Shown: positions 6,330 to 52,374 of the stretch, in pieces
Layout of the letters: each line of letters opens with the position of its first letter
Position numbering within the stretch: position 1 is the first letter of the stretch
The notes under the pieces: model-generated
Told to the model about the DNA's origin: nothing
Seen by the model: only the letters and a program-made list of their open reading frames with translations
Databases searched by the model: none
Position numbers and translations under genes: made by a program
NCBI GenBank assembly: GCA_015059285.1
Contig: SVAS01000001.1
Span: forward strand, 327,291 to 391,290
Reading direction: 5' to 3'
Source of the DNA: Bacillota bacterium
Lineage (GTDB): Bacteria; Bacillota_I; Bacilli_A; RF39; UBA660
DNA: 64,000 nt

Positions 6330-6824
6330 ATGGAAATAAAAAAATATGCAAGATTATCACTTTTATTAGCGCTTTCTGTAGTTTTAAATTTAATAGAAAG
6401 TTCAATTCCTATTTTTAATGGTTTTATACCAGGATTGAAGCTTGGTTTGGCCAATACAGTTATTTTATTTGTTTTATATGTTTTTTCTTTTAAAGATGCT
6501 TTATATGTATCGATAACAAGAGTATTTATTGTTGGTATACTCAGAACTGGATTATTTTCAATTACATTTTTCTTTAGTTTAGGGGGAGCAATTTTAAGTA
6601 TACTTGCTATGAGCATATGTAAAAAAATATCTAAACTATCAATTATAGGAACTAGTATTATTGGTTCGATTTTCCATAGTTTAGGTCAAATATTAATAGC
6701 TATTCTATTAATAAAAACAACTAATATGATTTATTATTTACCATGGTTACTTTTATTTTCAATTCCAACAGGTATAATTACAGGTTTAATTACAAAAGAA
6801 TTAATTAAGTATTTTCAAAAATAA
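6330..6824 (+). CDS. Gx transporter family protein (heptaprenyl diphosphate synthase component I-like membrane protein)
   Basis: 164-aa polytopic membrane protein, MEIKKYARLSLLLALSVVLNLIESSIP..; typical partner of ApbE/FMN-binding proteins. Confidence 0.6.
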   Translation: MEIKKYARLSLLLALSVVLNLIESSIPIFNGFIPGLKLGLANTVILFVLYVFSFKDALYVSITRVFIVGILRTGLFSITFFFSLGGAILSILAMSICKKISKLSIIGTSIIGSIFHSLGQILIAILLIKTTNMIYYLPWLLLFSIPTGIITGLITKELIKYFQK

Positions 6825-6893
6825 AAATAGATACTTGAAATAAAATAAAAATTATTATACAATTATATTGTTATATGATCGAGGAGGTTAATT

Positions 6894-7367
6894 ATGAAAA
6901 AGATTTTAGCATTTGTTGCACTTATTTGTTTAATAGGTATTTCTGGATGTACACCAGTAGAAGAAGGAATTTATAAAGAAGGAACATATTATGGAACAGC
7001 AACTGATAATTATGGTGGTGAAACAAATACAGCTACTGCTATTGTTTATGTAGATGCTTCTGGAGTAATTAAATCCGTTACTTTAGATACTACTTATGTC
7101 AAAGATGGTGTTGTTACTACTAAAAAATCATTAGGTAATGAATATGGTATGAAAGGTGTTTCTGCTTCTAAAGGAACTATTGCAGGTGGTGCTGAATGGT
7201 TTGAACAAGTAGCAAATTTAGAAAAGAAGATTGTTTCAGAACAAGGTTTAGATTGGTTAGTTTGGTCTGATACAGACAAAACAGTTACTGATTCTGTAAG
7301 TGGTGTAACAATTAAAATCAATGCTTTAGTTGAAGCAGCAAACAATGCAATTAATCAAGCAAAATAA
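6894..7367 (+). CDS. FMN-binding domain lipoprotein (extracytoplasmic flavoprotein, PplA/RnfG-like FMN_bind)
   Basis: Lipobox LIGISGC. Gly/Thr-rich FMN_bind-like sequence T.TDNYGGETNTATAIVYVDASGVIKSV. Directly downstream of apbE. Confidence 0.65.
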   Translation: MKKILAFVALICLIGISGCTPVEEGIYKEGTYYGTATDNYGGETNTATAIVYVDASGVIKSVTLDTTYVKDGVVTTKKSLGNEYGMKGVSASKGTIAGGAEWFEQVANLEKKIVSEQGLDWLVWSDTDKTVTDSVSGVTIKINALVEAANNAINQAK

Positions 7368-7402
7368 TTATGTAAATTAAAATTACTGTTAAAGCAGTAA
7401 TT

Positions 7403-7428
7403 TTTTTGTTTATATAATTAAATTGTAT
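7403..7428 (+). terminator. Rho-independent terminator (ATTACTG-TTAAAG-CAGTAAT plus T-run)
   Basis: Inverted repeat and TTTTTTT after the FMN-binding gene stop. Confidence 0.6.
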
Positions 7429-7783
7429 TAGCATATTTTATGTCGTATAATGTATATAATAGCAAGCCTTTTAGCTATGAGTATATAAATGAAATTAAAA
7501 ATAGAATTTTTGTAGTTAGTAGTATATTTCTATTTTAGGTGATTTATATTATTTAGCTGTAAAAATAAATGATACATAGATTTTGCAGTATTTTCTAGTA
7601 TGTATTTATAAGGAATTGCTCTGAAATGAGGAATTCAATGATAATTAAAAAATACTGCACTAAAAAATTATTGTTTCAAAACTTAAAAAAATGTAAAGCA
7701 AATTGTTTTTCAATTTTAATATGGAAAATAATTTGTTTTTGTTTTGTAATAAAAGGTAAATCTAATTGTAGATCACCCCCTTT

Positions 7784-7812
7784 TATCAATTTAATACGAA
7801 ATTAAATTGATA
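7784..7812. promoter_or_regulatory. Perfect 12-bp inverted repeat TATCAATTTAAT-acgaa-ATTAAATTGATA, candidate operator ending 1 nt before the RBS of the sigma-like regulator gene
   Basis: Seen directly in the sequence: the right arm is the exact reverse complement of the left arm, ends 1 nt before GGAGG, and is 13 nt upstream of the ATG at 7825. Confidence 0.55.
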
Positions 7813-7824
7813 GGAGGAATATAT

Positions 7825-8310
7825 ATGGCAAAAATGCCTAAAAGAAGAAAAAATAAGGATAATCCTTATACTCTAGAATACATAGAAGATAAAAACATTT
7901 ATAAAGTTAATTTTAAAGATAACAAAGGAAAATTAAATACGTTAGAAATAAGTGCTGATGTATATAAAGCAATGGATAAATTTGAACTAGAAGACATATC
8001 TCAAATGCATCAATTTGAGCGTCATATAGAACATTCTGAACTATTTGAAGGAACATTAAATGAAAGAGCTGTGGACAAGCCTCTTGCAGTAGAAGAAATA
8101 GTTGAAAATACTATTATAAATGAAGAACTTATAAGGGCAATTGGTGGTTTATCGGAAGTACAAAAAAGAAGAATAAAGTTATATTATTTTGAAGGTTTAA
8201 CACAAAAAGAAATCGCTAATAGAGAAGGAACTTCTTTGAGGGCAGTACAATATACTTTAAATAGCGCAATTAATAAATTGAAAGAAATTCTAAAAAATTT
8301 GCAAATTTGA
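7825..8310 (+). CDS. Sigma-70 region-4-only transcriptional regulator, phage ArpU/RinA-like or TcdR-like late/toxin-gene activator
   Basis: C-terminal HTH LSEVQKRRIKLYYFEGLTQKEIANREGTSLRAVQYTLNSAINKLKE is sigma region 4-like. No region 2 recognisable. Start trimmed to MAKMPKRR after GGAGG. Confidence 0.6.
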   Translation: MAKMPKRRKNKDNPYTLEYIEDKNIYKVNFKDNKGKLNTLEISADVYKAMDKFELEDISQMHQFERHIEHSELFEGTLNERAVDKPLAVEEIVENTIINEELIRAIGGLSEVQKRRIKLYYFEGLTQKEIANREGTSLRAVQYTLNSAINKLKEILKNLQI

Positions 8311-8337
8311 CTTCGTAAAATTGCTTTTGAGTGGGGA

Positions 8338-8374
8338 AACAGGTGAAAGGATAGATTGTATCCTTTCACCTGTT
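8338..8374 (+). terminator. Very strong 14-bp perfect hairpin (AACAGGTGAAAGGA-tagattgta-TCCTTTCACCTGTT) with a weak U-tract; terminator or RNA-processing/regulatory stem-loop
   Basis: Perfect inverted repeat 27 nt after the regulator stop; the downstream T-run is poor (CTTTGAAAA). Confidence 0.5.
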
Positions 8375-8687
8375 CTTTGAAAATTGAATAATGATAATTG
8401 AATACATAATGCTTCTTTTAAGCACGTTAGTAAGTTCGCTTGCGACTAATACTTGACTATGAATGCTAACAGATTATTAGCAATGCAATGATGAAGAAGT
8501 GTGATAATGATACTTCCACCTAGCGACAGTCTCAAACAATCGGAGTGGTTCTGATAAATACAGAAAGGTGAAATCCCTATGGTGCTGACATATCATCAGC
8601 CATTCAATTATCATGTGTAATAAAATTTTAGAAGAATTGCTAAATATTAGACTAAAACATAAAAAATATAGAAAGGTCGTGTAACGT

Positions 8688-9287
8688 ATGAACGAAACAG
8701 AACAAACTACAACTAATACAGGAGATTTTACTTTAGAAGATATTTATTTTAAAGATGCATTTACCCAAACTGAGGATAAATTAAATTTAGAAGTTGATAA
8801 TGCAAATATTAGTTGTTTAACTTCAAAAAACAATAAATTTAGTCTAGATGAGGATGGAAATTTAATTGTTAATAGCATCACATGCAGTCAAAGTGGGGAA
8901 ACAAGTGAAAGTTTGGATTTTAATCAAATATATCCAATTGGGTCAATTTACTTATCGGTAAACGATAGCAACCCTTCAATTTTATTTGGTGGTATTTGGG
9001 AACAACTTAAAGATCGTTTTTTGTTGGGTGCGGGAGATAATTATGCTAATACTTCTACTGGTGGTGAAGCATCTCATATTTTAAGTGTGTCAGAAATGCC
9101 GGCTCATAATCATAGAATTGGTTATGACCAAATATGGGGATATGGTGGTACTGCAAGTATTGCTTTAACTTCTGGTGGACCTTATTATGTGAGTTCAACA
9201 AATTATATTGGAAACACTGGCGGAAATCAAGCACATAACAATATGCCGCCTTATTTAACCGTATACATGTGGAAAAGAGTTAGTTAA
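8688..9287 (+). CDS. Phage tail-collar domain protein (tail-fiber-like, receptor-binding-type module)
   Basis: YPIGSIYLSVNDSNP..FGGIWEQLKDRFLLGAG....GGEASHILSVSEMPAHNH....GGNQAHNNMPPY matches the Collar domain consensus (G.W..L..RFLLG...GGE..H.L...EMP.H.H). Confidence 0.75.
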   Translation: MNETEQTTTNTGDFTLEDIYFKDAFTQTEDKLNLEVDNANISCLTSKNNKFSLDEDGNLIVNSITCSQSGETSESLDFNQIYPIGSIYLSVNDSNPSILFGGIWEQLKDRFLLGAGDNYANTSTGGEASHILSVSEMPAHNHRIGYDQIWGYGGTASIALTSGGPYYVSSTNYIGNTGGNQAHNNMPPYLTVYMWKRVS

Positions 9288-9336
9288 TTAATATATTACA
9301 ATTCTTCTAAAATGTATAATTTAAAGGAGAAATTTT

Positions 9337-12300
9337 ATGAAAGAAATAGAATTAAAAGAGTTAAGAAAAAAAAGAGAGAAACATTTTCTACAGGAAAATG
9401 GTAATATCGTAGCAAAAATATATGATGATGATGTACATTTTTTTAAAGATGGAAAATATGAAGAAATTGACAACACAATAATAATCAAAGATAATTACTA
9501 TACCAATAAGAGTAATGATTATAATGTATATTTTGGTAATGATAGTTATTTGATGAGAATGGAAAAAGATGATTGTTTTCTTAAATTTAAATTAGAAAAT
9601 GGTAATCATGATATAGTAAAAAAAGAAAACGGAAATGTTTGCTATGAAAATATATTAGATAACGTAGATATAAAATATTTTATTAAGTCTAATAAAGTTA
9701 AAGAAGATATTATTATTAAAAACAAAGAGGCAAACATTAAAAAAGTAAGTTTTATTATTGAAACCAACTTATCTTTATATGTGGTTAATAATAAAATTAA
9801 TGCGTTTAAAAATGATGATATTATTTTTGTTTTAGATGCTCCTTTCATGTATGATGCTAATGGTAACATAAATAAAAATATTTATTATGAATTAAAAAAA
9901 ACAGACAATCTTTATAAATTAGATTTGACATTAGATGAAAAATGGTTAACCCAAGCTGCTTATCCAGTTATAATTGACCCTACTATTACTGAGTATAGTG
10001 AAAATGATAGTGTAGTTGACACTTATATTTATCCTGGGGATACTGGTGTTGATAGAAATAGTCAGGACATTTTAAAAGCTGGTGTTGAAAGAATAAATGG
10101 CGTAGATAGAATTAATAGGACTCTATTAAGGTTTAACTTGCCGGAAATTGGAACCGGTAGCCAAATTATTAAAGCAGAATTGAGATTAATTGGTTACCCA
10201 CATATAGGAGAAACTTCTGAAAGTGATATCGTAAACATTCATAGTCTTACAACAGAATGGGAAGAAGATGAAGCTAATTGGGAAAATATGAATGATAAAT
10301 TTAATCCTAGATTAGAAGGTTCTTTCTATAGTGCCAGAAGTGTTAGAATGACATTAGAAGATGTTACTCCAAGAGAATGTACAGAAGATATAACAAATTT
10401 AGTAAAGAAGTGGTATTCAAGTAAAGAAAATTATGGAATAATGCTAAAAATGAATACAGAAGTGTATAGAAGTGACGTTATTCCAGCATTTTTTTCAAAA
10501 AACAATTCAGTATCTAATTATAATCCTAAACCACTTTTAGCAATTACATATAGAAACCAGAATGGTTTGGAAGATTATATGAATTATAAGAAACAAGCAT
10601 TTAGTAATGGAATGTCATATGTTAATACTTACAATGGAAATTTAACTACAATTTTTGATGTTGGTGCAACTATTGGTGGGATTAATCCGGTTAATTTAAG
10701 TTTAGTCTATAATACTAACGATGTTGTGTTGGAAAATAATTTAGGTGATGGTTTAGGATATAGATTTAATTTTAATCAAACGATAAAGCTCTTACCAATA
10801 GAAGAAGTTGAATATTTAGAATATATTGATGGTGATGGAACAATTCATTATTTTTACGAAACTGATGGAATCTACAAAGACGAAGATAACTTAAATATGA
10901 TTATAACTAAAGTTAATAATGAATACATTTTAGCGGATAAGAATGATAATAGAATGAAATTTGCAATTATCAATGAAGTTGGCTATTTAACTGAATTAGA
11001 AAATTTGAACCATGATAAAATTCAAATATTATATAATTCTAATAATCAAATAATAAAGATAATAGATCCAAATCTAGAAGAAATAAATATTTCAAGAGAA
11101 ACAAATAAAACAATCATTAGTAGTCCTGGAAAAACAGCTAATTTGATTTATAACGGAAATAAGCTCATATCTATACAAACTATTTTAGGTAATACAACAA
11201 TTACATATAATGATAAAAATATTATAGAAAGTATAACAGATGAGAATAATCAAAAATTGGCATATCAATATTATGAACAACAACCTTATCGTATGAAGAC
11301 AGTGACCGAATATGGCTTAAACAACGAAATGGGTAATTATTTTACTTTAGAATATAATTTTAATTCAACAACTATAGTTGATAATAAAGATAGAGCAAAT
11401 ACAATGACTTTTAATAATTTTGGAAATGCTGTTTCTATTACAACCTTAAAATCTAAAGAAGATGTAAAAGAAGCGTATGGGAAAAGGCTAATTTATGGTA
11501 GTAGTTATATAACTTCAGAAGGAGAGTATGCGCCTTATAAAAACAAACTACTTAACGAAGAAGTTTTTAATAAATGTATCAAAAATCACTTTCCTAACTC
11601 TAACTTTGAGGAAGATGACTTTGTATTTACCCCATGCGCGAACAATATTTTATACATTGTTGATGACGAATACTTAGAAGGTCCAAAATCTTTAGCGTTT
11701 ATAACTAAAGATTATAATCAATATATAACAAAAACAATATCTGTCCCTAAAGGAAAATATTACACATTTAGTTTTAATTTAATCAACCACATGTCTTTTA
11801 CAATATCACTTTCATATAAGGATGCCAATGATTATACTGTTAGCGAACGAACTTATGTTGACTATATAAATTTAGAATTTGAAAAACAGGAAGTAAGCAT
11901 TTTCTATCCTGAAGATGCAAAATCAGATTTAACAATAATGATTTCCGCTTATGAAATGGGGACATCCTATATAAATTCTATTCAATTAGAAGAAGGTGAT
12001 GTTGCTAATAGTTATAATTACATTTCTAATTCAGATTTTTCAAATGGTCTTAGTGACTGGGAATTAAGAGCACAAATTAATGATCAAGGGGACTATGTTA
12101 ATGCTGATGATAAATTTGAAGTAGTTACATTAGACAATGGATTAAATGCACTTAAAGTCAAGATGAATCCACTATATTCTACTGGTTTTTCAAAAACGTT
12201 TAAAGTTAGAGGTAAACCTGGTGATATTTTTACAATTGCTTTTTGGTATAAACATCAAGGATATAAAGGTTCGGATTACGCACAAGCGCCGAGACATAAT

Positions 12301-15300
12301 AACGTTATTATTAGATTTAACTATATTGACCAAAGTTATGGACATTGTATATCACCAAGTAGTTCATTTAATCCGAATGAAAATGAATGGCAATATTTTT
12401 CTGCCGATTTCGTAGCAGAAAAAGAATTTGATTCACTATATTTATCATTTTCACAAGGTTTTAATGGCAATGATTTTTATATAACTAATTTAAGTTTAGT
12501 TAAAGATAGTGGTAGTGTTAGTTTTAATTATGATGAAAAAGGAAATATAATTGGAAAGAGCGGTTTAAATAACGAATTAAGCGAATTTAATTATGATAAG
12601 AATAATCAATTAATAAAAATGACTGATTCCATGGGAAACAATCACACGTTTGAATATGATAAAGATGTTAGTGATAGAGTTATAAATGGCATATCTGCAA
12701 CTGGCATATCTAATAAAATAAAATATAATAGCGATGGAAATCCAATTGTTACAAAAATAGTTAATCATGGTAAAAATGAAGAAATATTATCCGGATTTTA
12801 TAAAGTTAAAGCAAAAGGTGCTAATAAATATATAAAAAACAATTATAACGTTTTAATATTAAAAGAAACTAATTGTAATCATCATTTATGGTTGCTTGAA
12901 AAAGTTGATGAAAACTATAGGATAAAACATTCTTTATTAAATAAATATATAAATATTTTGAATAATACGTTAATATTATCAGAAGAATATGCATTATTCA
13001 GTTTAATAAAAAATCAATGTAATAGTTTTTTGATCAAAGAAATAGAAAGTGGTAACTACATTAAAAACAATAATGATGTATTGGAAATTACTTCTTTGAT
13101 TGAAGATGATGATAGTTTTGAATTTTATTTTGAAAATGGAAACGAACTATTTATAGAAAACAACGCTGAATATACATCGGATAAAAGATTTATTAAAGAG
13201 ACTACGGATACTTTATTACATAAAACAGAATATGAAGTTGATGAGGGGACTGGATTAATTAAATCCGTAATAAATCCTAAAGGACAATTAACAACTTATG
13301 AATACAACGATAAACAACAATTATCAAAAATAATCACTAATGCAAAAACTATTGATTATGTTTATAATAGTAACAATTTGTTGGATAAGATAGTAGAAGG
13401 TAACAAAAGCTACCAATTTCAATATGATAATTTCTTAAATGTTAATCAAATTAAAATTGGCGATAATATTACCTTAATAACCAATAATTATGCACCAAAT
13501 AATGGAAATTTAATTAATTCAGTATATGGAAATAATGATATTGTTAGTTATGAATATGATGATTTTGATAGAGTCAGCAAAATATTTAGAATGAATGATA
13601 CCTATAATTATAAATATGATAATAATGGTAATGTTGCAAAAGTTTTTGGCAATGTAGACAAATGGAAATATTTCTATGATTCTGCCAAAAGACTGAATGA
13701 ATATAGATTAAATAATTTTAAAATAAAATATTTTTATGATAAAAATGATAACCTATATAGAAAAACTTATTGGCTTGATGACACAAATATCAACATTTGG
13801 AATAATGTACCTAGCTCAAGAATAGCTATTTATGGTATAGAGCAAATCAACGAATTTAATGATGATGACTGTATTACAAAAACGACAATAGGAAATGTTT
13901 CTCTTGATTATGATTATGATTATTTAGGTAGATTAACAAGCAGAAGTATAAATAATAATTATAAAACAGATTATCAATATGTAACTAATGGCAAAAGAAC
14001 ATCACTATTAGTAAAAAGTATTAAAAACAATAATGATTTATATAATTACAGATATGATAAATTAAATAATATCACTCACGTATATTACAACAATAGTCTT
14101 ATAAATAGGTATTATTATGATGAGTATAATGAACTTATTAAAGAAAACAATTATGTAACTAATGAAACAACAGAATATACTTATGATAACTATGGAAACA
14201 TATTAAATAAAAAAGTATATGCATTAAATACTAATAACTTATTAAGTCAAGACACTTATGAATATAATAATTCTAATTGGGTTGACCAATTAACTAGATT
14301 TAATAATGAAACTATCGTGTATGATGAAATAGGAAACCCACTTGCTATTGGTTCAAAAACATTATCATGGATAAACGGAAGACAATTGAGTGGTTATAAT
14401 GACTCAACAATTAATGCTAACTACAGATACGATAAAGATGGATATAGGATAAGTAAAATTGTAAATAATCAAGAAACAAAATATTACCTTGAAAATAATA
14501 AAATAATACTTGAAATTAAAGGTGATGATATTATATACTATATGTATAATGAAGTTGATGACATAATAGGATTTAAATATAATAATGATGTATATTATTA
14601 TATAAAAAATGTTAAAAATGATATAATTGGTATATTAGATAGCAGTCATACTCAAGTCGTAAAATATAATTATGATTCTTGGGGCAATATTATATCAATA
14701 ACAGATAATAATAATAATGACATAAGTAATACTTTAAATCATATAGGCAATATTAATCCATTTAGATATAGAAGTTATTATTATGATTCGGAAACAAATT
14801 TTTATTATTTAAACTCAAGATATTACAATCCTGTTTGGGGTAGATTTTTGAATGCTGATGGCATTGTTAATGATGGAGAAATTATAGGCTGCAATTTGTT
14901 CGCTTATTGTAATAATAATCCTATAAATTTAGTTGACCCTACTGGAGAGCTTGCACTTGCAGGCACTATAGGCGGAGTTTTGGGTGTGGTTGCAATTGTT
15001 GGTTCTATTTATTATGCAAGCAAAAGTCTGATAAAAAGTGCCACAAGTATTCCGAATGTAATATATGATACTAAAACAAAAATAGAAAATGCTATTGGTT
15101 CCATAGAGATTAACAAAACAGAAACTAAAACACAAACGCCTGCAATATCCGTTCCTAAAATAGAAAGTATTGACTTGGGCACACCTAAGTATAAACCTTG
15201 TACTGAGGCATGGCTATCTAATGGCGACGTGGCAAGAGGAAATAGATTAACAATTGATGAATCATATATCCATGTAAGCAATGGTCATGATGTAATGTGT

Positions 15301-15456
15301 GACAATCAGTTTTCTGCACATCAAGTAGCACAAAGATTTGTTGGTTATATTGGTCCGGAAATAGACAAAAAACAATTGCCTGGCAATAAGTATTATTGTC
15401 ACTATCATCCGGATAGAACGTCGCATAGACATATTTGGTTCTATTCAATGCAATAA
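9337..15456 (+). CDS. RHS/YD-repeat polymorphic toxin, 2039 aa. No signal peptide. N-terminal DNRLRE-like domain, about 30 YD repeats, RHS core ending at a DPTGE autoprocessing motif, then a C-terminal TM helix and a toxin tip of unknown family.
   Basis: Repeated YxYDxxGN/R motifs (e.g. YDEIGNPLAIGSKTLSWINGRQLSGY...YRYDKDGYRISKI). RHS core signature YYNPVWGRFLNADGIV...NPINLVDPTGE. C-terminal 170 aa comprise LALAGTIGGVLGVVAIVGSIYY... through ...YYCHYHPDRTSHRHIWF. Confidence 0.9.
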   Translation: MKEIELKELRKKREKHFLQENGNIVAKIYDDDVHFFKDGKYEEIDNTIIIKDNYYTNKSNDYNVYFGNDSYLMRMEKDDCFLKFKLENGNHDIVKKENGNVCYENILDNVDIKYFIKSNKVKEDIIIKNKEANIKKVSFIIETNLSLYVVNNKINAFKNDDIIFVLDAPFMYDANGNINKNIYYELKKTDNLYKLDLTLDEKWLTQAAYPVIIDPTITEYSENDSVVDTYIYPGDTGVDRNSQDILKAGVERINGVDRINRTLLRFNLPEIGTGSQIIKAELRLIGYPHIGETSESDIVNIHSLTTEWEEDEANWENMNDKFNPRLEGSFYSARSVRMTLEDVTPRECTEDITNLVKKWYSSKENYGIMLKMNTEVYRSDVIPAFFSKNNSVSNYNPKPLLAITYRNQNGLEDYMNYKKQAFSNGMSYVNTYNGNLTTIFDVGATIGGINPVNLSLVYNTNDVVLENNLGDGLGYRFNFNQTIKLLPIEEVEYLEYIDGDGTIHYFYETDGIYKDEDNLNMIITKVNNEYILADKNDNRMKFAIINEVGYLTELENLNHDKIQILYNSNNQIIKIIDPNLEEINISRETNKTIISSPGKTANLIYNGNKLISIQTILGNTTITYNDKNIIESITDENNQKLAYQYYEQQPYRMKTVTEYGLNNEMGNYFTLEYNFNSTTIVDNKDRANTMTFNNFGNAVSITTLKSKEDVKEAYGKRLIYGSSYITSEGEYAPYKNKLLNEEVFNKCIKNHFPNSNFEEDDFVFTPCANNILYIVDDEYLEGPKSLAFITKDYNQYITKTISVPKGKYYTFSFNLINHMSFTISLSYKDANDYTVSERTYVDYINLEFEKQEVSIFYPEDAKSDLTIMISAYEMGTSYINSIQLEEGDVANSYNYISNSDFSNGLSDWELRAQINDQGDYVNADDKFEVVTLDNGLNALKVKMNPLYSTGFSKTFKVRGKPGDIFTIAFWYKHQGYKGSDYAQAPRHNNVIIRFNYIDQSYGHCISPSSSFNPNENEWQYFSADFVAEKEFDSLYLSFSQGFNGNDFYITNLSLVKDSGSVSFNYDEKGNIIGKSGLNNELSEFNYDKNNQLIKMTDSMGNNHTFEYDKDVSDRVINGISATGISNKIKYNSDGNPIVTKIVNHGKNEEILSGFYKVKAKGANKYIKNNYNVLILKETNCNHHLWLLEKVDENYRIKHSLLNKYINILNNTLILSEEYALFSLIKNQCNSFLIKEIESGNYIKNNNDVLEITSLIEDDDSFEFYFENGNELFIENNAEYTSDKRFIKETTDTLLHKTEYEVDEGTGLIKSVINPKGQLTTYEYNDKQQLSKIITNAKTIDYVYNSNNLLDKIVEGNKSYQFQYDNFLNVNQIKIGDNITLITNNYAPNNGNLINSVYGNNDIVSYEYDDFDRVSKIFRMNDTYNYKYDNNGNVAKVFGNVDKWKYFYDSAKRLNEYRLNNFKIKYFYDKNDNLYRKTYWLDDTNINIWNNVPSSRIAIYGIEQINEFNDDDCITKTTIGNVSLDYDYDYLGRLTSRSINNNYKTDYQYVTNGKRTSLLVKSIKNNNDLYNYRYDKLNNITHVYYNNSLINRYYYDEYNELIKENNYVTNETTEYTYDNYGNILNKKVYALNTNNLLSQDTYEYNNSNWVDQLTRFNNETIVYDEIGNPLAIGSKTLSWINGRQLSGYNDSTINANYRYDKDGYRISKIVNNQETKYYLENNKIILEIKGDDIIYYMYNEVDDIIGFKYNNDVYYYIKNVKNDIIGILDSSHTQVVKYNYDSWGNIISITDNNNNDISNTLNHIGNINPFRYRSYYYDSETNFYYLNSRYYNPVWGRFLNADGIVNDGEIIGCNLFAYCNNNPINLVDPTGELALAGTIGGVLGVVAIVGSIYYASKSLIKSATSIPNVIYDTKTKIENAIGSIEINKTETKTQTPAISVPKIESIDLGTPKYKPCTEAWLSNGDVARGNRLTIDESYIHVSNGHDVMCDNQFSAHQVAQRFVGYIGPEIDKKQLPGNKYYCHYHPDRTSHRHIWFYSMQ

Positions 15457-15482: not shown

Positions 15483-16238
15483 ATGTATATAAACAAGGTA
15501 ACTACTGAGGTTTATAAAAAGATACTTGATTATAAGTTAGAAAAGTGCAATTATGCATCTTTGACTGTATATACAGATCAACATTTAGATGAACATCTAG
15601 ATATTATTAATATTATTACATCCAATCCTAAATACTCTAAACAATATATTTTATCTAATTATTCAGAAATACTGTTAGGACAAATTTATAATGATTTTAA
15701 GAATGATAAAAGAATATATAATGTTAAGGAACATGTAAGAAAAATAAAAAAAAGTTCTTTTAGAAAATGTGAATCTAATGATGAATTGGAAAACTTTCTA
15801 TATCAGCATGAATCTGAAAATAGAAAATCATCTATATTTAGCGCCATACAAAGCTTTGTTTATAATAATTTTACAACCCAATTTATTGAAGAATATAGGA
15901 GTAAAATTGTAAAAATAAAGGATGAATTATATGAGCATGAACTCACACCATTCCATAAAAAAGAAGCGTTTTATAAAAAAGAATATATATTTCAGCTTGA
16001 TGATGAATTAAAACAAATTATACATAACACTTATTTATATGACTGGAGTTTTCCAATGAAATTAGAAGATTTAAGCTTGTTTGTTGAAAATTATTTGTGG
16101 ATATATTCAGTTACACATGAAGAACTATGCTATATTTATTGTGAAACAGAGGAAGAATATAATTATTTAAAATCAATGGGTGTTGAGTTCTATGAAGAAC
16201 ACTTTATTCCACAAGAAAAGCAAGAAATCGTTTTTTAA
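15483..16238 (+). CDS. Putative cognate immunity protein for the RHS C-terminal toxin (cytoplasmic, 251 aa)
   Basis: Sits immediately downstream; the long ORF's ATG at 15435 overlaps the RHS stop. The likely true start, ATG at 15483, follows RBS GGGGGA. No TM or signal peptide. The toxin-then-immunity order is typical. Confidence 0.6.
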   Translation: MYINKVTTEVYKKILDYKLEKCNYASLTVYTDQHLDEHLDIINIITSNPKYSKQYILSNYSEILLGQIYNDFKNDKRIYNVKEHVRKIKKSSFRKCESNDELENFLYQHESENRKSSIFSAIQSFVYNNFTTQFIEEYRSKIVKIKDELYEHELTPFHKKEAFYKKEYIFQLDDELKQIIHNTYLYDWSFPMKLEDLSLFVENYLWIYSVTHEELCYIYCETEEEYNYLKSMGVEFYEEHFIPQEKQEIVF

Positions 16239-16253
16239 TAAAATAAAACAAAA

Positions 16254-16283
16254 AACAATCAAATTAAATTTGATTGTTTTTTG
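16254..16283 (+). terminator. Rho-independent terminator (AACAATCAAAT-TAA-ATTTGATTGTT plus T-run) separating the toxin-immunity unit from the lysis cassette
   Basis: 11-bp perfect inverted repeat followed by TTTTT. Confidence 0.6.
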
Positions 16284-16466
16284 TATATAGGATATGATAT
16301 TTGAAATCAAATATAACACACAATATATTCTATAGTTTATGATGGATTTGATGGTATGATAATGATTAAATAAAAATTTATGCAGTAATATAATAGTAAA
16401 CATTTTAAAAGGACACAATCTTAAACTTGATTAAGTCTTTTTATTTTTATTATGGAGGTGATATAT

Positions 16467-16772
16467 ATGATAGAAATAATATGTAGATATTGGCTAGAAA
16501 TATTATTAACTACTATCACAAGCGGTTTTATATATGTTATCAAAGAACATATAGGATTAAAAAATGGAGTGAAAGCTTTACTTAGAAATGAGATAGTTAG
16601 AATATATGAAACGTATTCTAAATTAGGATATTGTCCAAGTTATATGAAAGAAAATGCAAATGAAATTTATATTAATTATCATAGATTAGAAAAAAATGGT
16701 ATGATAACATCTATGCTAGAAGAAATAAATAAATTACCTGTTGAGATAAAAGTGGAGGTTATAAATGCATAA
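16467..16772 (+). CDS. Small N-terminally membrane-anchored protein, holin-associated (phage lysis-module accessory protein)
   Basis: Start trimmed to MIEIICRYW.. (ATG at 16467 after GGAGGTG). One N-terminal TM segment. Its stop overlaps the holin start. Confidence 0.45.
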   Translation: MIEIICRYWLEILLTTITSGFIYVIKEHIGLKNGVKALLRNEIVRIYETYSKLGYCPSYMKENANEIYINYHRLEKNGMITSMLEEINKLPVEIKVEVINA

Positions 16773-16995
16773 AATTTTAAACGACAAGTATGTAAGTAAA
16801 ATTATAAAAACATTTATTGAAGGTTTTCTTGCATCTTTAATTGTAAGTTTTCAGACCATAGAAAATTTATCTGATTTGAATTTAATTAAAACAGTATTAG
16901 TTGGTGCAATTGCTATGGGGATTTCAGCTGTACTAAACTTATTTCAAATGTATTTAAATAAAGAGAAAGTTGAATATGGAAAAAGCAATACTTAA
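16765..16995 (+). CDS. Phage holin, phi-LC3/LL-H-like family
   Basis: 76 aa. SKIIKTFIEGFLASLIVSF fits the ..KTF.Q.F.A.L motif of this holin family. Two hydrophobic segments and a charged C-terminus (NKEKVEYGKSNT). Confidence 0.65.
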   Translation: MHKILNDKYVSKIIKTFIEGFLASLIVSFQTIENLSDLNLIKTVLVGAIAMGISAVLNLFQMYLNKEKVEYGKSNT

Positions 16996-17782
16996 TTTAG
17001 ATATATTAAATATAAGTCAAGGAATGAATGATAGCTTTTCCCATCCAGGTAATTTAGCAATAGATGTAACAGGTTGTTCTTATTTAAAAGCCCCATTTAC
17101 AGGTGTTATAAAAAAGATTTATTCAGAGTGCAATGCTGTTTGGCTAGAAAGTGTAGAAAAGGTAGAGTATGCAGATGGAACTATAGATTATATGACAATT
17201 ATGACAATGCATGATAATGATATATCAGATCTTTATGTTGGTAAATTAATAAAACAAGGAGATATATTTTATCAACAAGGAATGAAAGGTTACGCAACAG
17301 GACCACATATTCAGATTTCAGTAGGAAAAGGTAAATTTAGTGGTTCGGGTTGGTATGAAAATAAACAAGGTTCTTGGTGCATTAATAATCAATATGATAT
17401 AACTAGGGCACTATTTTTACACACCGATGTTAGAATAATTTATAGTATGTATAATTGGAAAATAACTGTTTATTCAAAACTTGTTAATAAAAATAAGTCT
17501 ATTGATGAAATGGCTAATGAAGTTATTCAAGGTAAATGGGGAAATAATCCTGAAAGAAAACAAAGATTAATTCAAGCTGGATATGATTATACAGCTATAC
17601 AAAATAGAGTTAATGAGTTATTAAGTACTTCATCTGAAATAATACATACAGTAGAAAAAGGCGAATATTTAATCAAAATAGCTGCAAAGTATAACAAGAA
17701 TTGGCGTAAAATTGCAAGCGATAATAATATAAAATCTCCGTGGATAATATATCCAGGGCAAAAGTTAATAATATATAAATAG
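16976..17782 (+). CDS. Endolysin: N-terminal M23 metallopeptidase domain, CW_7 (Cpl-7) cell-wall-binding repeat, C-terminal LysM
   Basis: M23 HxxxD/H.H-type motifs (SFSHPGNLAIDVTG; GPHIQISV). CW_7 repeat DEMANEVIQGKWGNNPERKQRLIQAGYDYTAIQ. LysM HTVEKGEYLIKIAAKYNKNWRKIASDNN...YPGQKLII. The ORF-track start is a TTG at 16970; the ATG at 16976 with RBS AAGAGAAAG is preferred. Confidence 0.8.
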   Translation: MEKAILNLDILNISQGMNDSFSHPGNLAIDVTGCSYLKAPFTGVIKKIYSECNAVWLESVEKVEYADGTIDYMTIMTMHDNDISDLYVGKLIKQGDIFYQQGMKGYATGPHIQISVGKGKFSGSGWYENKQGSWCINNQYDITRALFLHTDVRIIYSMYNWKITVYSKLVNKNKSIDEMANEVIQGKWGNNPERKQRLIQAGYDYTAIQNRVNELLSTSSEIIHTVEKGEYLIKIAAKYNKNWRKIASDNNIKSPWIIYPGQKLIIYK

Positions 17783-17789
17783 TTGAGTG

Positions 17790-17819
17790 AGATAACCATT
17801 TTGGTTATCTTGCTTTTTT
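17790..17819 (+). terminator. Rho-independent terminator after the endolysin gene (AGATAACCA-TTTT-GGTTATCT plus T-run)
   Basis: Inverted repeat followed by TGCTTTTTTATTT. Confidence 0.6.
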
Positions 17820-52297: not shown

Positions 52298-52374
52298 TGG
52301 TAGCGAGAGAGGGACTTGAACCCCCGACTTTTCGGGTATGAACCGAACGTTCTAGCCAACTGAACTATCTCGCC
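52298..52374 (-). tRNA. tRNA with CAT anticodon (Met / fMet / lysidine-modified Ile2 type), 77 nt with encoded CCA
   Basis: Reverse complement GGCGAGATAGTTCAGTTGGCTAGAACGTTCGGTTCATACCCGAAAAGTCGGGGGTTCAAGTCCCTCTCTCGCTACCA folds as a cloverleaf: D-arm AGTTCAGTTGG, anticodon loop TTCATAC, T-loop GGTTCAAGTCC. Confidence 0.85.

Follow-up and report, generated by a model that had tools for sequence, protein, structure and literature searches.

A stand-alone phage fibre-tip protein encoded beside an RHS toxin in uncultured gut Bacilli: a candidate targeting partner

The window considered here, that is, the whole 64,000-nucleotide stretch of contig SVAS01000001.1 from a member of the Bacillota, carries a cassette in which a short gene encodes a stand-alone protein resembling the very end of a phage tail fibre (hereafter the tip). 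It is followed directly by a gene for a large RHS protein, a candidate immunity gene and a group of lysis-type genes, and is preceded by a gene for a sigma-like regulator (Table 1). The open reading frame (ORF) of the tip is present exactly as the original prediction, made from the sequence of the window, had given it, with its ATG start and its length of 199 residues, and the motif quoted for it there (GGIWEQLKDRFLLGAGDNYANTSTGGEASHILSVSEMPAHNH...AHNNMPPY) is found in the protein. The comparative evidence described below points to the tip as a putative targeting partner of the RHS toxin, aimed at prey cells.

Table 1. Features of the tip–RHS cassette in the window
Feature	Position (nt)	Strand	Size or residues (aa)	Evidence or remark
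Sigma-70 region-4/ECF-like regulator	7825..8310	+	161	Sigma70_r4_2 1.6e-09; TIGR02937 4.4e-14; PHROG sigma-factor families
Strong hairpin after regulator	8333..8378	+		dG -26.7 kcal/mol; z -6.2; 0/200 shuffles as good
pemK RNA motif, Rfam RF02913	8504..8582	+		48.2 bits vs gathering score 34.8
Stand-alone fibre-tip protein	8688..9287	+	199	ATG start; Gp10_C head
Tip: shaft segment	8730-8882		15-65	
Tip: Gp10_C head	8919-9284		78-199	
Tip: HxH	9105-9113		140-142	
Tip: hypervariable loop	9114-9218		143-177	
RHS toxin without signal peptide	9337..15456	+	2039	RHS_repeat 5.9e-16; TIGR03696 Rhs core 8.3e-19
RHS: DUF7948-like N-domain			1-220	
RHS: CBM96/DNRLRE			221-420	
RHS: YD shell				
RHS: CBM_4_9-like module			~894-1039	inserted in shell
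RHS: fascin/beta-trefoil-like module				inserted in shell
RHS: Rhs core			1779-1870	ends ...DPTGE (...NLVDPTGE)
RHS: C-terminal region			~1871-2039	hydrophobic segment 1869-1899, then toxin domain
Candidate immunity protein	15483..16238	+	251	directly after toxin; ORF listed from 15435
Perfect 17-bp palindromic hairpin, immunity gene/lysis unit boundary	16248..16284	.		dG -17.1 kcal/mol; z -7.6
Small protein with hydrophobic N-terminus, PHROG 4105	16452..16772	+	101-106	phrog_4105 1.6e-14; first lysis-unit gene
Holin-like membrane protein	16765..16995	+	76	one predicted transmembrane segment, 38-64; phrog_443 holin weak, E 2.2e-3
Endolysin-like protein	16976..17782	+	268	CW_7 3.5e-18; LysM 8.2e-12; PHROG endolysin families 8e-19
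Intrinsic terminator closing cassette	17785..17815	+		14-bp stem and U-run; dG -16.4 kcal/mol; z -5.3

The fibre-tip protein and its phage relatives

Residues 78–198 of the tip are matched by the Pfam family PF21939 Gp10_C (E 5.7e-22, 79.6 bits against a cut-off of 27) over positions 2–139 of the 139-position profile. The original prediction had spoken of a “textbook Collar domain”, a label that is close but not exact, as PF07484 “Collar” gives no match to the protein even at E ≤ 10. The profile of the tip family matches the structure of the C-terminal domain of T4 gp10 (2fkk) with E 2.6e-8, and the same structure is the best Foldseek match of the AlphaFold2 monomer of the tip (E 4.5e-4, probability 1.00). 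The TM-score of that match is only 0.33, which is attributed to the monomer model being poor in the part where the trimers intertwine; its mean predicted local distance difference test score (pLDDT) is 66, with residues 79–120 and 190–199 modeled well. The two histidines of the HxH motif, H140 and H142, are unchanged in all 42 tip-family sequences that were aligned. In T4 gp12, an HxH motif binds metal in the homotrimer, and by analogy the tip may likewise trimerize and bind metal through these residues.

The 77 residues that precede the head contain no baseplate-attachment domain and align to the distal shaft segment standing before the head in long phage fibres, so that the absence of an N-terminal attachment region, as originally described, holds. 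The tip as a whole aligns to the C-terminal end of long tail proteins in PHROG (positions 929–1150 of 1150 in phrog_5717), and its head (residues 78–199) is 47–50% identical to the extreme C-terminus of the approximately 650-residue “antireceptor” of the Lactobacillus delbrueckii phages Ld3, LL-Ku, c5, and phiLdb. All 199 residues align, at 30% identity, to the last ~200 residues of a 620-residue fibre-like protein of Streptococcus pyogenes prophages, which is encoded there between a “tail fibers protein” and a holin. These alignments to the C-termini of fibres indicate that the tip gene corresponds to the distal ~200 residues of a Gram-positive phage fibre, present as a separate gene. For the antireceptor of phage LL-H (656 residues), host-range mutations have been located at residues 380–543 and the receptor is lipoteichoic acid (PMC3870949); this host-range stretch only partly overlaps the head that is homologous to the tip. 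As a control, 80 viral contigs carrying the domain were inspected, in which it mostly forms the end of fibre proteins of 400–670 residues, and an RHS neighbor occurs in none of them.

Judged by its sequence, the tip is thus a member of the Gp10_C family that lacks two of the marks of a complete tail fibre, the attachment domain and the location in a tail cluster, and possesses a third, a variable distal region (the loop at 143–177) of the kind expected of a specificity determinant. No tail-morphogenesis genes adjoin it, the neighbors being housekeeping genes, the regulator, the RHS gene, and the lysis genes. The family is large: 2,895 relatives were found among 5.8 billion proteins searched, and most of the best 120 of these are 177–215 residues long and cover 90–100% of the query, while an alignment of 42 members at 49–68% identity retains 35 invariant columns. 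Residues 1–77 alone retrieve 190 cluster representatives among 1.84 billion, in which the segment always lies ~130–190 residues before the C-terminus, either at the extreme N-terminus of ~200-residue proteins or after an extra domain of 150 or 270 residues, in forms of ~340–420 and ~465–540 residues. At least 23 independent contigs encode the identical protein. The cassette, too, recurs on at least 23 independent contigs, of which two match the window at 99.99% identity, and it is therefore not an assembly artifact.

These data bear directly on the possibility, raised in the original prediction, that the ORF is a vestigial fibre, i.e. a decaying and functionless 3′ fragment of a tail-fibre gene. 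The match to the C-terminal ~200 residues of longer fibres would be expected of such a remnant, and a decayed fragment of 105 residues does occur in a related genome (L023 in our numbering of the compared loci). We nevertheless attach next to no credence to this explanation, which is refuted by the ~2,900 relatives, with most of the best 120 full-length at 177–215 residues, by the 35 columns that remain invariant across 42 divergent members, and by the intact, RHS-adjacent ORF in 72 species genomes; the tip gene of the window, in addition, has its own start codon and ribosome-binding site. The ORF is not a truncated pseudogene, its family being one of full-length proteins that stand alone.

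Several unusual forms were met in the same searches. The closest species-representative relative, at 76% identity, is the L023 fragment itself (10010–10774), which lies beside an endolysin fragment of 50 residues, and this locus is a cassette decayed through loss of its RHS gene. One relative of 723 residues (P0257) carries an insertion of ~560 residues at the loop position, and another of 446 residues (P0277) has two heads after one shaft. At L088 (7033–10913), eight intact head-only Gp10_C genes of 124–138 residues stand in tandem, every one with a different loop; six of the eight start with MKLNIDFIYP and the other two with close variants. They lie downstream of fibre-like proteins of 579 and 372 residues, and no RHS gene is seen up to the end of the contig. 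This array looks like a phage-type set of alternative fibre tips.

Pairing with RHS genes and the pattern of variation

The association of the tip with RHS was assessed with the tip-family alignment as the query against one genome per species (GTDB), the neighbors being scored by our own ORF calling and blastp. At least 80 loci were obtained, almost all from metagenome-assembled genomes of uncultured gut bacteria labeled “Bacilli” or “Tenericutes”, and 77 of them could be evaluated. In 72 of the 77, the gene directly downstream of the tip, on its strand, encodes a homologue of the window RHS protein that spans the full length of that protein, including residues 1–220, and the two genes lie a median of 12 nucleotides apart; 63 of these loci have one tip gene, 6 have two, and 3 have three, and a metagenomic locus with five was also encountered. 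In the reverse direction, when the RHS N-terminus was used to retrieve metagenome loci, 40 of 44 had a tip gene upstream. The co-occurrence that had been suggested as a check of the original prediction is therefore very strong both ways. Among the exceptions are the decayed remnant at L023 and the different, phage-like head-only array at L088.

In the window, the stop codon of the tip ends at 9287 and the ATG of the RHS gene lies at 9337, a gap of 49 nucleotides by count (the closeness had been noted correctly, the figure given being 50). The gap carries an AAAGGAG ribosome-binding site and has neither a terminator nor a stable hairpin (z = -0.08), which, together with the median of 12 nucleotides across the 72 genomes, makes co-transcription of the two genes likely, as had been supposed. 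Gaps of ~400–490 nucleotides occur in 12 loci (e.g. L013, L019, and L020) and tend to accompany long-form tips of 350–400 residues with an extra N-terminal domain of ~170 residues. In L012 the gap (10618–11025) holds an additional ORF of ~135 residues with no family match, which may encode a fibre-assembly helper.

The RHS protein itself has the features by which a polymorphic toxin is recognized from sequence, namely YD/RHS repeats, a core with the DPxG cleavage motif, and a variable C-terminus followed by a candidate immunity gene. Its DUF6531, CBM_4_9, and fascin-like matches are weak, all of them under the Pfam cut-offs. The relatives found by protein searches with the N-terminus were contig-end fragments, unfit for length statistics, and were used as the alignment for structure prediction; the resulting AlphaFold2 model of the N-terminal module has a pLDDT of 86.7, and its second domain superposes on CBM96 structures that bind alginate and chondroitin sulfate. 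Gut siphoviruses have proteins similar to this two-domain module (Foldseek E 4.6e-23; phrog_37549), and a search of 50,697 cultured-phage records with the RHS N-terminus gave only two weak matches. No PAAR/VgrG-binding or LXG/WXG N-terminal domain of the kind that marks T6SS and T7SS Rhs effectors was found in Pfam or NCBIfam, and neither the toxin domain (residues 1876–2039) nor the immunity candidate has a match in Pfam, NCBIfam, or the PDB.

The C-terminal ends vary among the relatives, some of which end in Ntox44 or Tox-WTIP, and orphan toxin fragments are also present. Homologues of the immunity candidate occur in three loci only, in L012 and L074, which share the same RHS C-terminal toxin, and in L075, where the homologue follows an RHS C-terminal fragment. 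Right after the Rhs core motif, the C-terminal region opens with a hydrophobic, transmembrane-like stretch in 20 of 51 loci (L027, L189, and L194 being examples of the 51). Several others open with a Lys-rich amphipathic helix (e.g. FFKKLLKKAKKAIKKVVKTVKKVVKK), and either element may act on membranes ahead of the toxin.

A hydrophobic N-terminus is absent from the window RHS protein and from 51 relatives, the consensus N-terminus being charged, and no LysM was detected in the window protein. A signal-like N-terminus was thus seen in 0 of 51 tip-linked RHS proteins, whereas the two distant homologues of the RHS N-domain encoded at L222 (1555–7647) and L236 (2840–7252) have a Sec-type signal peptide and no tip gene nearby. 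The distributions of the signal peptide and the tip gene are therefore complementary (0/51 against 2/2), with only two signal-bearing cases on one side of the comparison.

The variation within the tip is very unevenly distributed. Between tandem paralogues the shaft (15–65) is 75–94% identical, the head core 62–78%, and the loop (143–177) 8–23%, and in a set of 88 tip/RHS pairs no segment diverges more than the loop, whose mean distance is 0.86. Shaft distances follow RHS distances (Spearman rho 0.68 against RHS residues 1–1270, Mantel p 0.001) about as closely as RHS segments follow one another, whereas head distances do not (rho 0.14), even though on the DNA it is the head that separates the shaft from RHS. 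The loop is also exchanged. When L197 is compared with L196, L198, and L200, the shaft is 100%, the head core 91–93%, and the RHS N-domain 95–97% identical, while the loop is only 6% identical, the new loop in one paralogue being the one that the sister strain carries in the other. In L173 (6000–9955), L174 (6009–9955), L063, and L069, the tip and a neighboring phage-type fibre of 650 residues (phrog_372) share two loop variants that trade places between fibre and tip from locus to locus. Such variation and swapping is the behavior expected of a receptor-specificity determinant on a constant scaffold. Taken together with the homology to phage antireceptors and with the distribution complementary to signal peptides, the hypervariability of the loop and its sharing with phage fibres are what point to a targeting role for the tip.

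The RHS side of the pair can be exchanged as well. In L247, whose flanks are 89–95% identical to the window, the segments 6600–9300 (lipoprotein gene, regulator, leader, and tip) and 16600–17800 (lysis unit) are ~100% identical, and between them the RHS gene has 40–80% DNA identity and 45–68% protein identity over its whole length, with a different C-terminus and an unrelated 137-residue gene in place of the immunity gene. One breakpoint coincides with the RHS start, and the other falls just past the immunity gene. RHS and immunity have thus been swapped as a block within an otherwise ~100% identical frame, which suggests a recently spread cassette frame with swappable RHS–immunity cargo.

Two alternative explanations have to be considered at this point. 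In the first, the tip would bind the wall of the producer itself and hold RHS on the outer face of living or partly lysed producers, so that killing would depend on contact, as proposed for WapA, instead of on a diffusible complex. Such surface display would be consistent with the wall association of the characterized Gram-positive Rhs/WapA toxins, which have the DNRLRE domain in common with the window protein (PMC12704120), and with the fact that phage-type tips recognize wall polymers of the same species, so that producer and target may share a receptor. It does not sit well with the lack of a signal peptide on the tip as well as on RHS or with the lysis-type genes of the cassette, and the hypervariable loop, the up to five tandem paralogues, and the loop exchange with fibres fit diverse foreign receptors better; on balance it is judged unlikely. 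In the second alternative, the two proteins would be linked without being complexed, i.e. co-regulated and co-released and acting separately, with the tip serving, for example, as a lectin that masks or marks receptors or as a helper of lysis. One identical tip beside two RHS alleles that are ~55% identical N-terminally, the position of the tip gene after the RHS and lysis genes in L074, and the carbohydrate-binding modules of RHS itself would all be compatible with that. It is harder to reconcile with the near-universal gene order, with spacing at translational-coupling distance (median 12 nucleotides), with shaft distances that follow RHS distances when head distances do not, and with the distribution complementary to signal peptides, and we consider it improbable.

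Regulation, lysis-type genes, and the proposed delivery of the toxin

Terminators delimit three transcription units in the window cassette. The regulator ORF is listed from a TTG at 7807, and gene calls on the sister contigs start at the ATG at 7825; homologues occur at the same position in L001, L003, L012, and other loci. Its comparison with the PDB returned generic sigma factors only, and a tblastn search of plasmids for TcdR/UviA-type kin gave three weak matches, none to known toxin regulators. The hairpin after the regulator is likely a terminator that separates it from the toxin operon. In the 377-nucleotide leader between the regulator and the tip gene lies the pemK motif, which is found at the same place in L001 (7436–7492), L003 (9841–9896), L033 (9823–9878), and L043 (9817–9872) with 43–48.6 bits. 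Because it is present in five of the eight regulator-bearing cassettes examined and in none of seven loci without the regulator, this orphan motif may be tied to the phage-like regulator, and its unpaired 5′ consensus (AUAAUGAUACUUCC) could be a promoter sequence rather than RNA. The literature searched offered nothing informative on the motif. A mini-ORF of 13 codons (8579..8620, + strand; MVLTYHQPFNYHV followed by a stop) has a ribosome-binding site and an ATG that form the 3′ end of the pemK motif and may therefore encode a leader peptide. A promoter element apparently shared between 8502 and 16357 (TGATAATGAT) was considered and is unconvincing, as the 10-mer recurs in coding sequence and elsewhere in a window of 25% GC.

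The palindromic hairpin between the immunity gene and the lysis unit is likely a terminator, possibly a bidirectional one, or an attenuator, in which latter case it could limit expression of the lysis genes. Homologues of the PHROG 4105 protein occur in L012, L014, L020, L033, L074, L187, L199, L203, and L204. The holin-like gene sits where sister cassettes carry a clear Phage_holin_6_1 or Phage_holin_4_1 gene. The endolysin-like gene of the window is clear from its CW_7, LysM, and PHROG matches, and the N-terminal domain of its product is only weakly M23-like (M23 E 0.046). Two layouts recur among the loci. In one (the window, L001, L003, and L012) the order is regulator, tip(s), RHS, immunity, small membrane protein, holin, and endolysin; in the other, seen in about a dozen loci, holin and endolysin are followed by tip and RHS. 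At least 25 of the 72 loci have holin or endolysin homologues beside the pair (within 3 kb upstream or 5 kb downstream), a lower bound, since the survey used five endolysin and five holin queries and covered ~3.5 kb downstream of RHS. The invariant core of the cassettes is the tip–RHS pair.

The phage-like character of these neighbors raises a further possibility, namely that the pair is a prophage moron or virion accessory whose tip docks on the fibre of a particle encoded elsewhere, RHS being released by, or riding on, that phage or phage-like particle. Such an origin would fit the loci in which the pair directly follows a holin–endolysin module and those in which it stands beside tail-type proteins of 635–650 residues (L063, L069, L173, and L174, with L173 and L174 being IMG/VR viral contigs). 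In L172 the RHS gene adjoins an ORF read, from its sequence alone, as phage terminase-like, and the resemblance of the RHS N-terminal module to gut siphovirus proteins points the same way. In the window and most other loci, however, housekeeping genes surround the cassette, and genes for a capsid, portal, tape measure, or tube are lacking; RHS is absent from all 80 phage loci with the domain, and the RHS N-terminus found just two weak matches among the phage records. This explanation is accordingly given a low probability. L173 was also considered as a prophage and rejected, PHROG comparison of the 10 kb upstream giving tail-type proteins and a lysis module and no capsid, portal, or tape-measure gene. 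Housekeeping or sporulation genes border the window cassette, a compositional island test found its GC content no different from theirs, and no cassette protein has a meaningful match among the PADLOC defence models. The window as a whole has ~25% G+C and a single tRNA gene (52301–52374, - strand, Rfam 68.2 bits).

In the model that we put forward, and to which we would give about an even chance of being right, the cassette encodes a lysis-released RHS bacteriocin that is targeted at least partly by a domesticated phage receptor-binding tip. The tip would be the receptor-binding end of a Gram-positive phage fibre, reduced to a short shaft, a trimeric Gp10_C head, and a hypervariable loop, and would act as the targeting subunit for an RHS polymorphic toxin that has no secretion signal. 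The dedicated sigma-like regulator would turn on the tip–RHS–immunity operon via the leader with the pemK RNA motif, following which toxin-loaded RHS cocoons and tip trimers would build up in the cytoplasm with the immunity protein shielding the producer. The unit of membrane-protein, holin-like, and endolysin-like genes would then lyse a fraction of the producers, freeing both proteins. Once outside, the tip, probably docked on RHS, would bind a cell-wall glycopolymer of related bacteria via its variable loop, with the carbohydrate-binding modules of RHS contributing to affinity, and the C-terminal toxin would be cleaved off and cross the target membrane, a passage that the hydrophobic stretch or, in some relatives, the Lys-rich amphipathic helix would assist.

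Several observations weigh against this model. The holin assignment in the window is weak (phrog_443 E 2.2e-3), lysis genes stand beside only about a third to half of the pairs (again as a lower bound), and at some loci, such as L009, nothing but the tip–RHS pair stands among the housekeeping genes. The tip gene of L074 and L214 follows RHS rather than preceding it, and the CBM96, CBM_4_9-like, and beta-trefoil-like modules of RHS could bind receptors without the tip. The tip in L247, identical to that of the window, is paired with an RHS protein that is only ~55% identical over its N-terminal 200 residues, which implies that docking uses conserved features, or does not take place, and that any allele-specificity is limited. 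Confidence in the AlphaFold2 monomer of the tip is, finally, only moderate.

Relation to known systems

The C-terminal head of T4 gp10 (PF21939; 2fkk) and the related heads of gp11 and gp12 are like residues 78–199 of the tip in profile and fold, and the tip keeps the gp10-type framework IYP.GS...FGG.W...Y.WKR. T4 gp10 is, however, a 602-residue baseplate wedge protein of the virion, whereas the tip is a stand-alone protein of 199 residues encoded outside any tail-gene cluster, with a hypervariable loop and an invariant HxH that is absent from gp10 in the aligned stretch. The whole head is 47–50% identical to that of the L. delbrueckii phage antireceptors (LL-H, LL-Ku, c5, and Ld3), a family implicated in host specificity and in lipoteichoic-acid binding (PMC3870949). 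The antireceptors are virion proteins of ~650 residues, and the tip comprises only the last ~200 residues, in a separate, toxin-coupled gene.

With the WapA/Gram-positive Rhs proteins of Bacillus subtilis and Streptococcus suis, the window RHS shares the YD cocoon, the core autoproteolysis motif, DNRLRE/CBM96, the variable C-terminal toxin with a downstream immunity gene, and the orphan toxin fragments in relatives. Neither the Sec signal peptide nor the LysM wall-anchoring repeats of WapA (PMC12704120) are present in the window RHS family, which instead carries the tip gene and, often, lysis genes. Zhang et al. 2012 (PMC3482391) listed “tail fiber” repeats as central regions within Firmicutes toxin polypeptides exported by the type VII secretion system or by PVC; the fibre sequence there lies inside the toxin polypeptide, whereas here it is a separate gene, and that paper does not mention a tail-collar or Gp10_C head partner, or holins. 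No description of such a tip paired with RHS was found in the searchable full-text literature, whose coverage leaves out most subscription journals, in agreement with the original prediction that the arrangement had not been described. The pairing hints at a means, not described before, by which such toxins may be directed against rival bacteria.

It is still unclear by what route Gram-positive Rhs/WapA toxins exit the producer and pass two thick walls, and how they select their targets (PMC12704120). Across at least 72 species-level genomes of uncultured gut Bacilli, the pair ties an entire RHS subfamily to a protein whose nearest characterized relatives are phage antireceptors and, in many loci, to lysis genes as well, which provides a concrete and testable model for release and targeting. 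If that model is correct, killing spectra should be predictable from the sequence of the variable loop, the tip/RHS frame could be re-targeted through loop swaps, as with tailocin fibres, and the system would add a further clear instance of bacteria in the gut microbiome turning phage receptor-binding parts to warfare. The leader beside the sigma-like regulator, moreover, provides a functional context for the orphan pemK RNA motif.

Colicins, S-pyocins, R/F-pyocins, and diffocins have a dedicated regulator and an immunity gene, are released by lysis genes, and owe their killing spectrum to a receptor-binding module. The window cassette resembles these lysis-released bacteriocins in its regulator, its lysis-type genes, its putative receptor-binding module, and its candidate immunity gene, and differs from them in having neither a tail tube and sheath nor colicin-type domains; it has, instead, an encapsulated RHS toxin and a separate, small receptor-binding protein.

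A parallel in overall logic is offered by the Tc toxins of Yersinia entomophaga, which are released from a subpopulation of producers by a phage-derived holin/endolysin lysis cassette (type 10 secretion; PMC10847048, PMC10847046). The likeness is one of analogy and lies in the combination of an RHS cocoon with its toxin, a separate receptor-binding component, and release by lysis. No TcA channel, SpvB domain, or beta-propeller was detected in the window RHS protein or its neighbors; unlike in the Tc system, the host is Gram-positive and the receptor-binding part is a phage fibre tip, and the target, also unlike that of Tc toxins, is probably bacterial, as judged from the immunity gene and the polymorphic C-termini. 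It is possible, though we hold it to be somewhat short of an even chance, that the cassette represents a new class of polymorphic-toxin delivery in Gram-positive bacteria, in which a self-contained, diffusible bacteriocin of tip and RHS cocoon is released by programmed lysis, with the tip docked on the N-terminal module of the signal-less RHS and an exchangeable loop setting the spectrum. Functionally, such a system would be a minimal antibacterial counterpart of the Tc toxins, built from phage parts.

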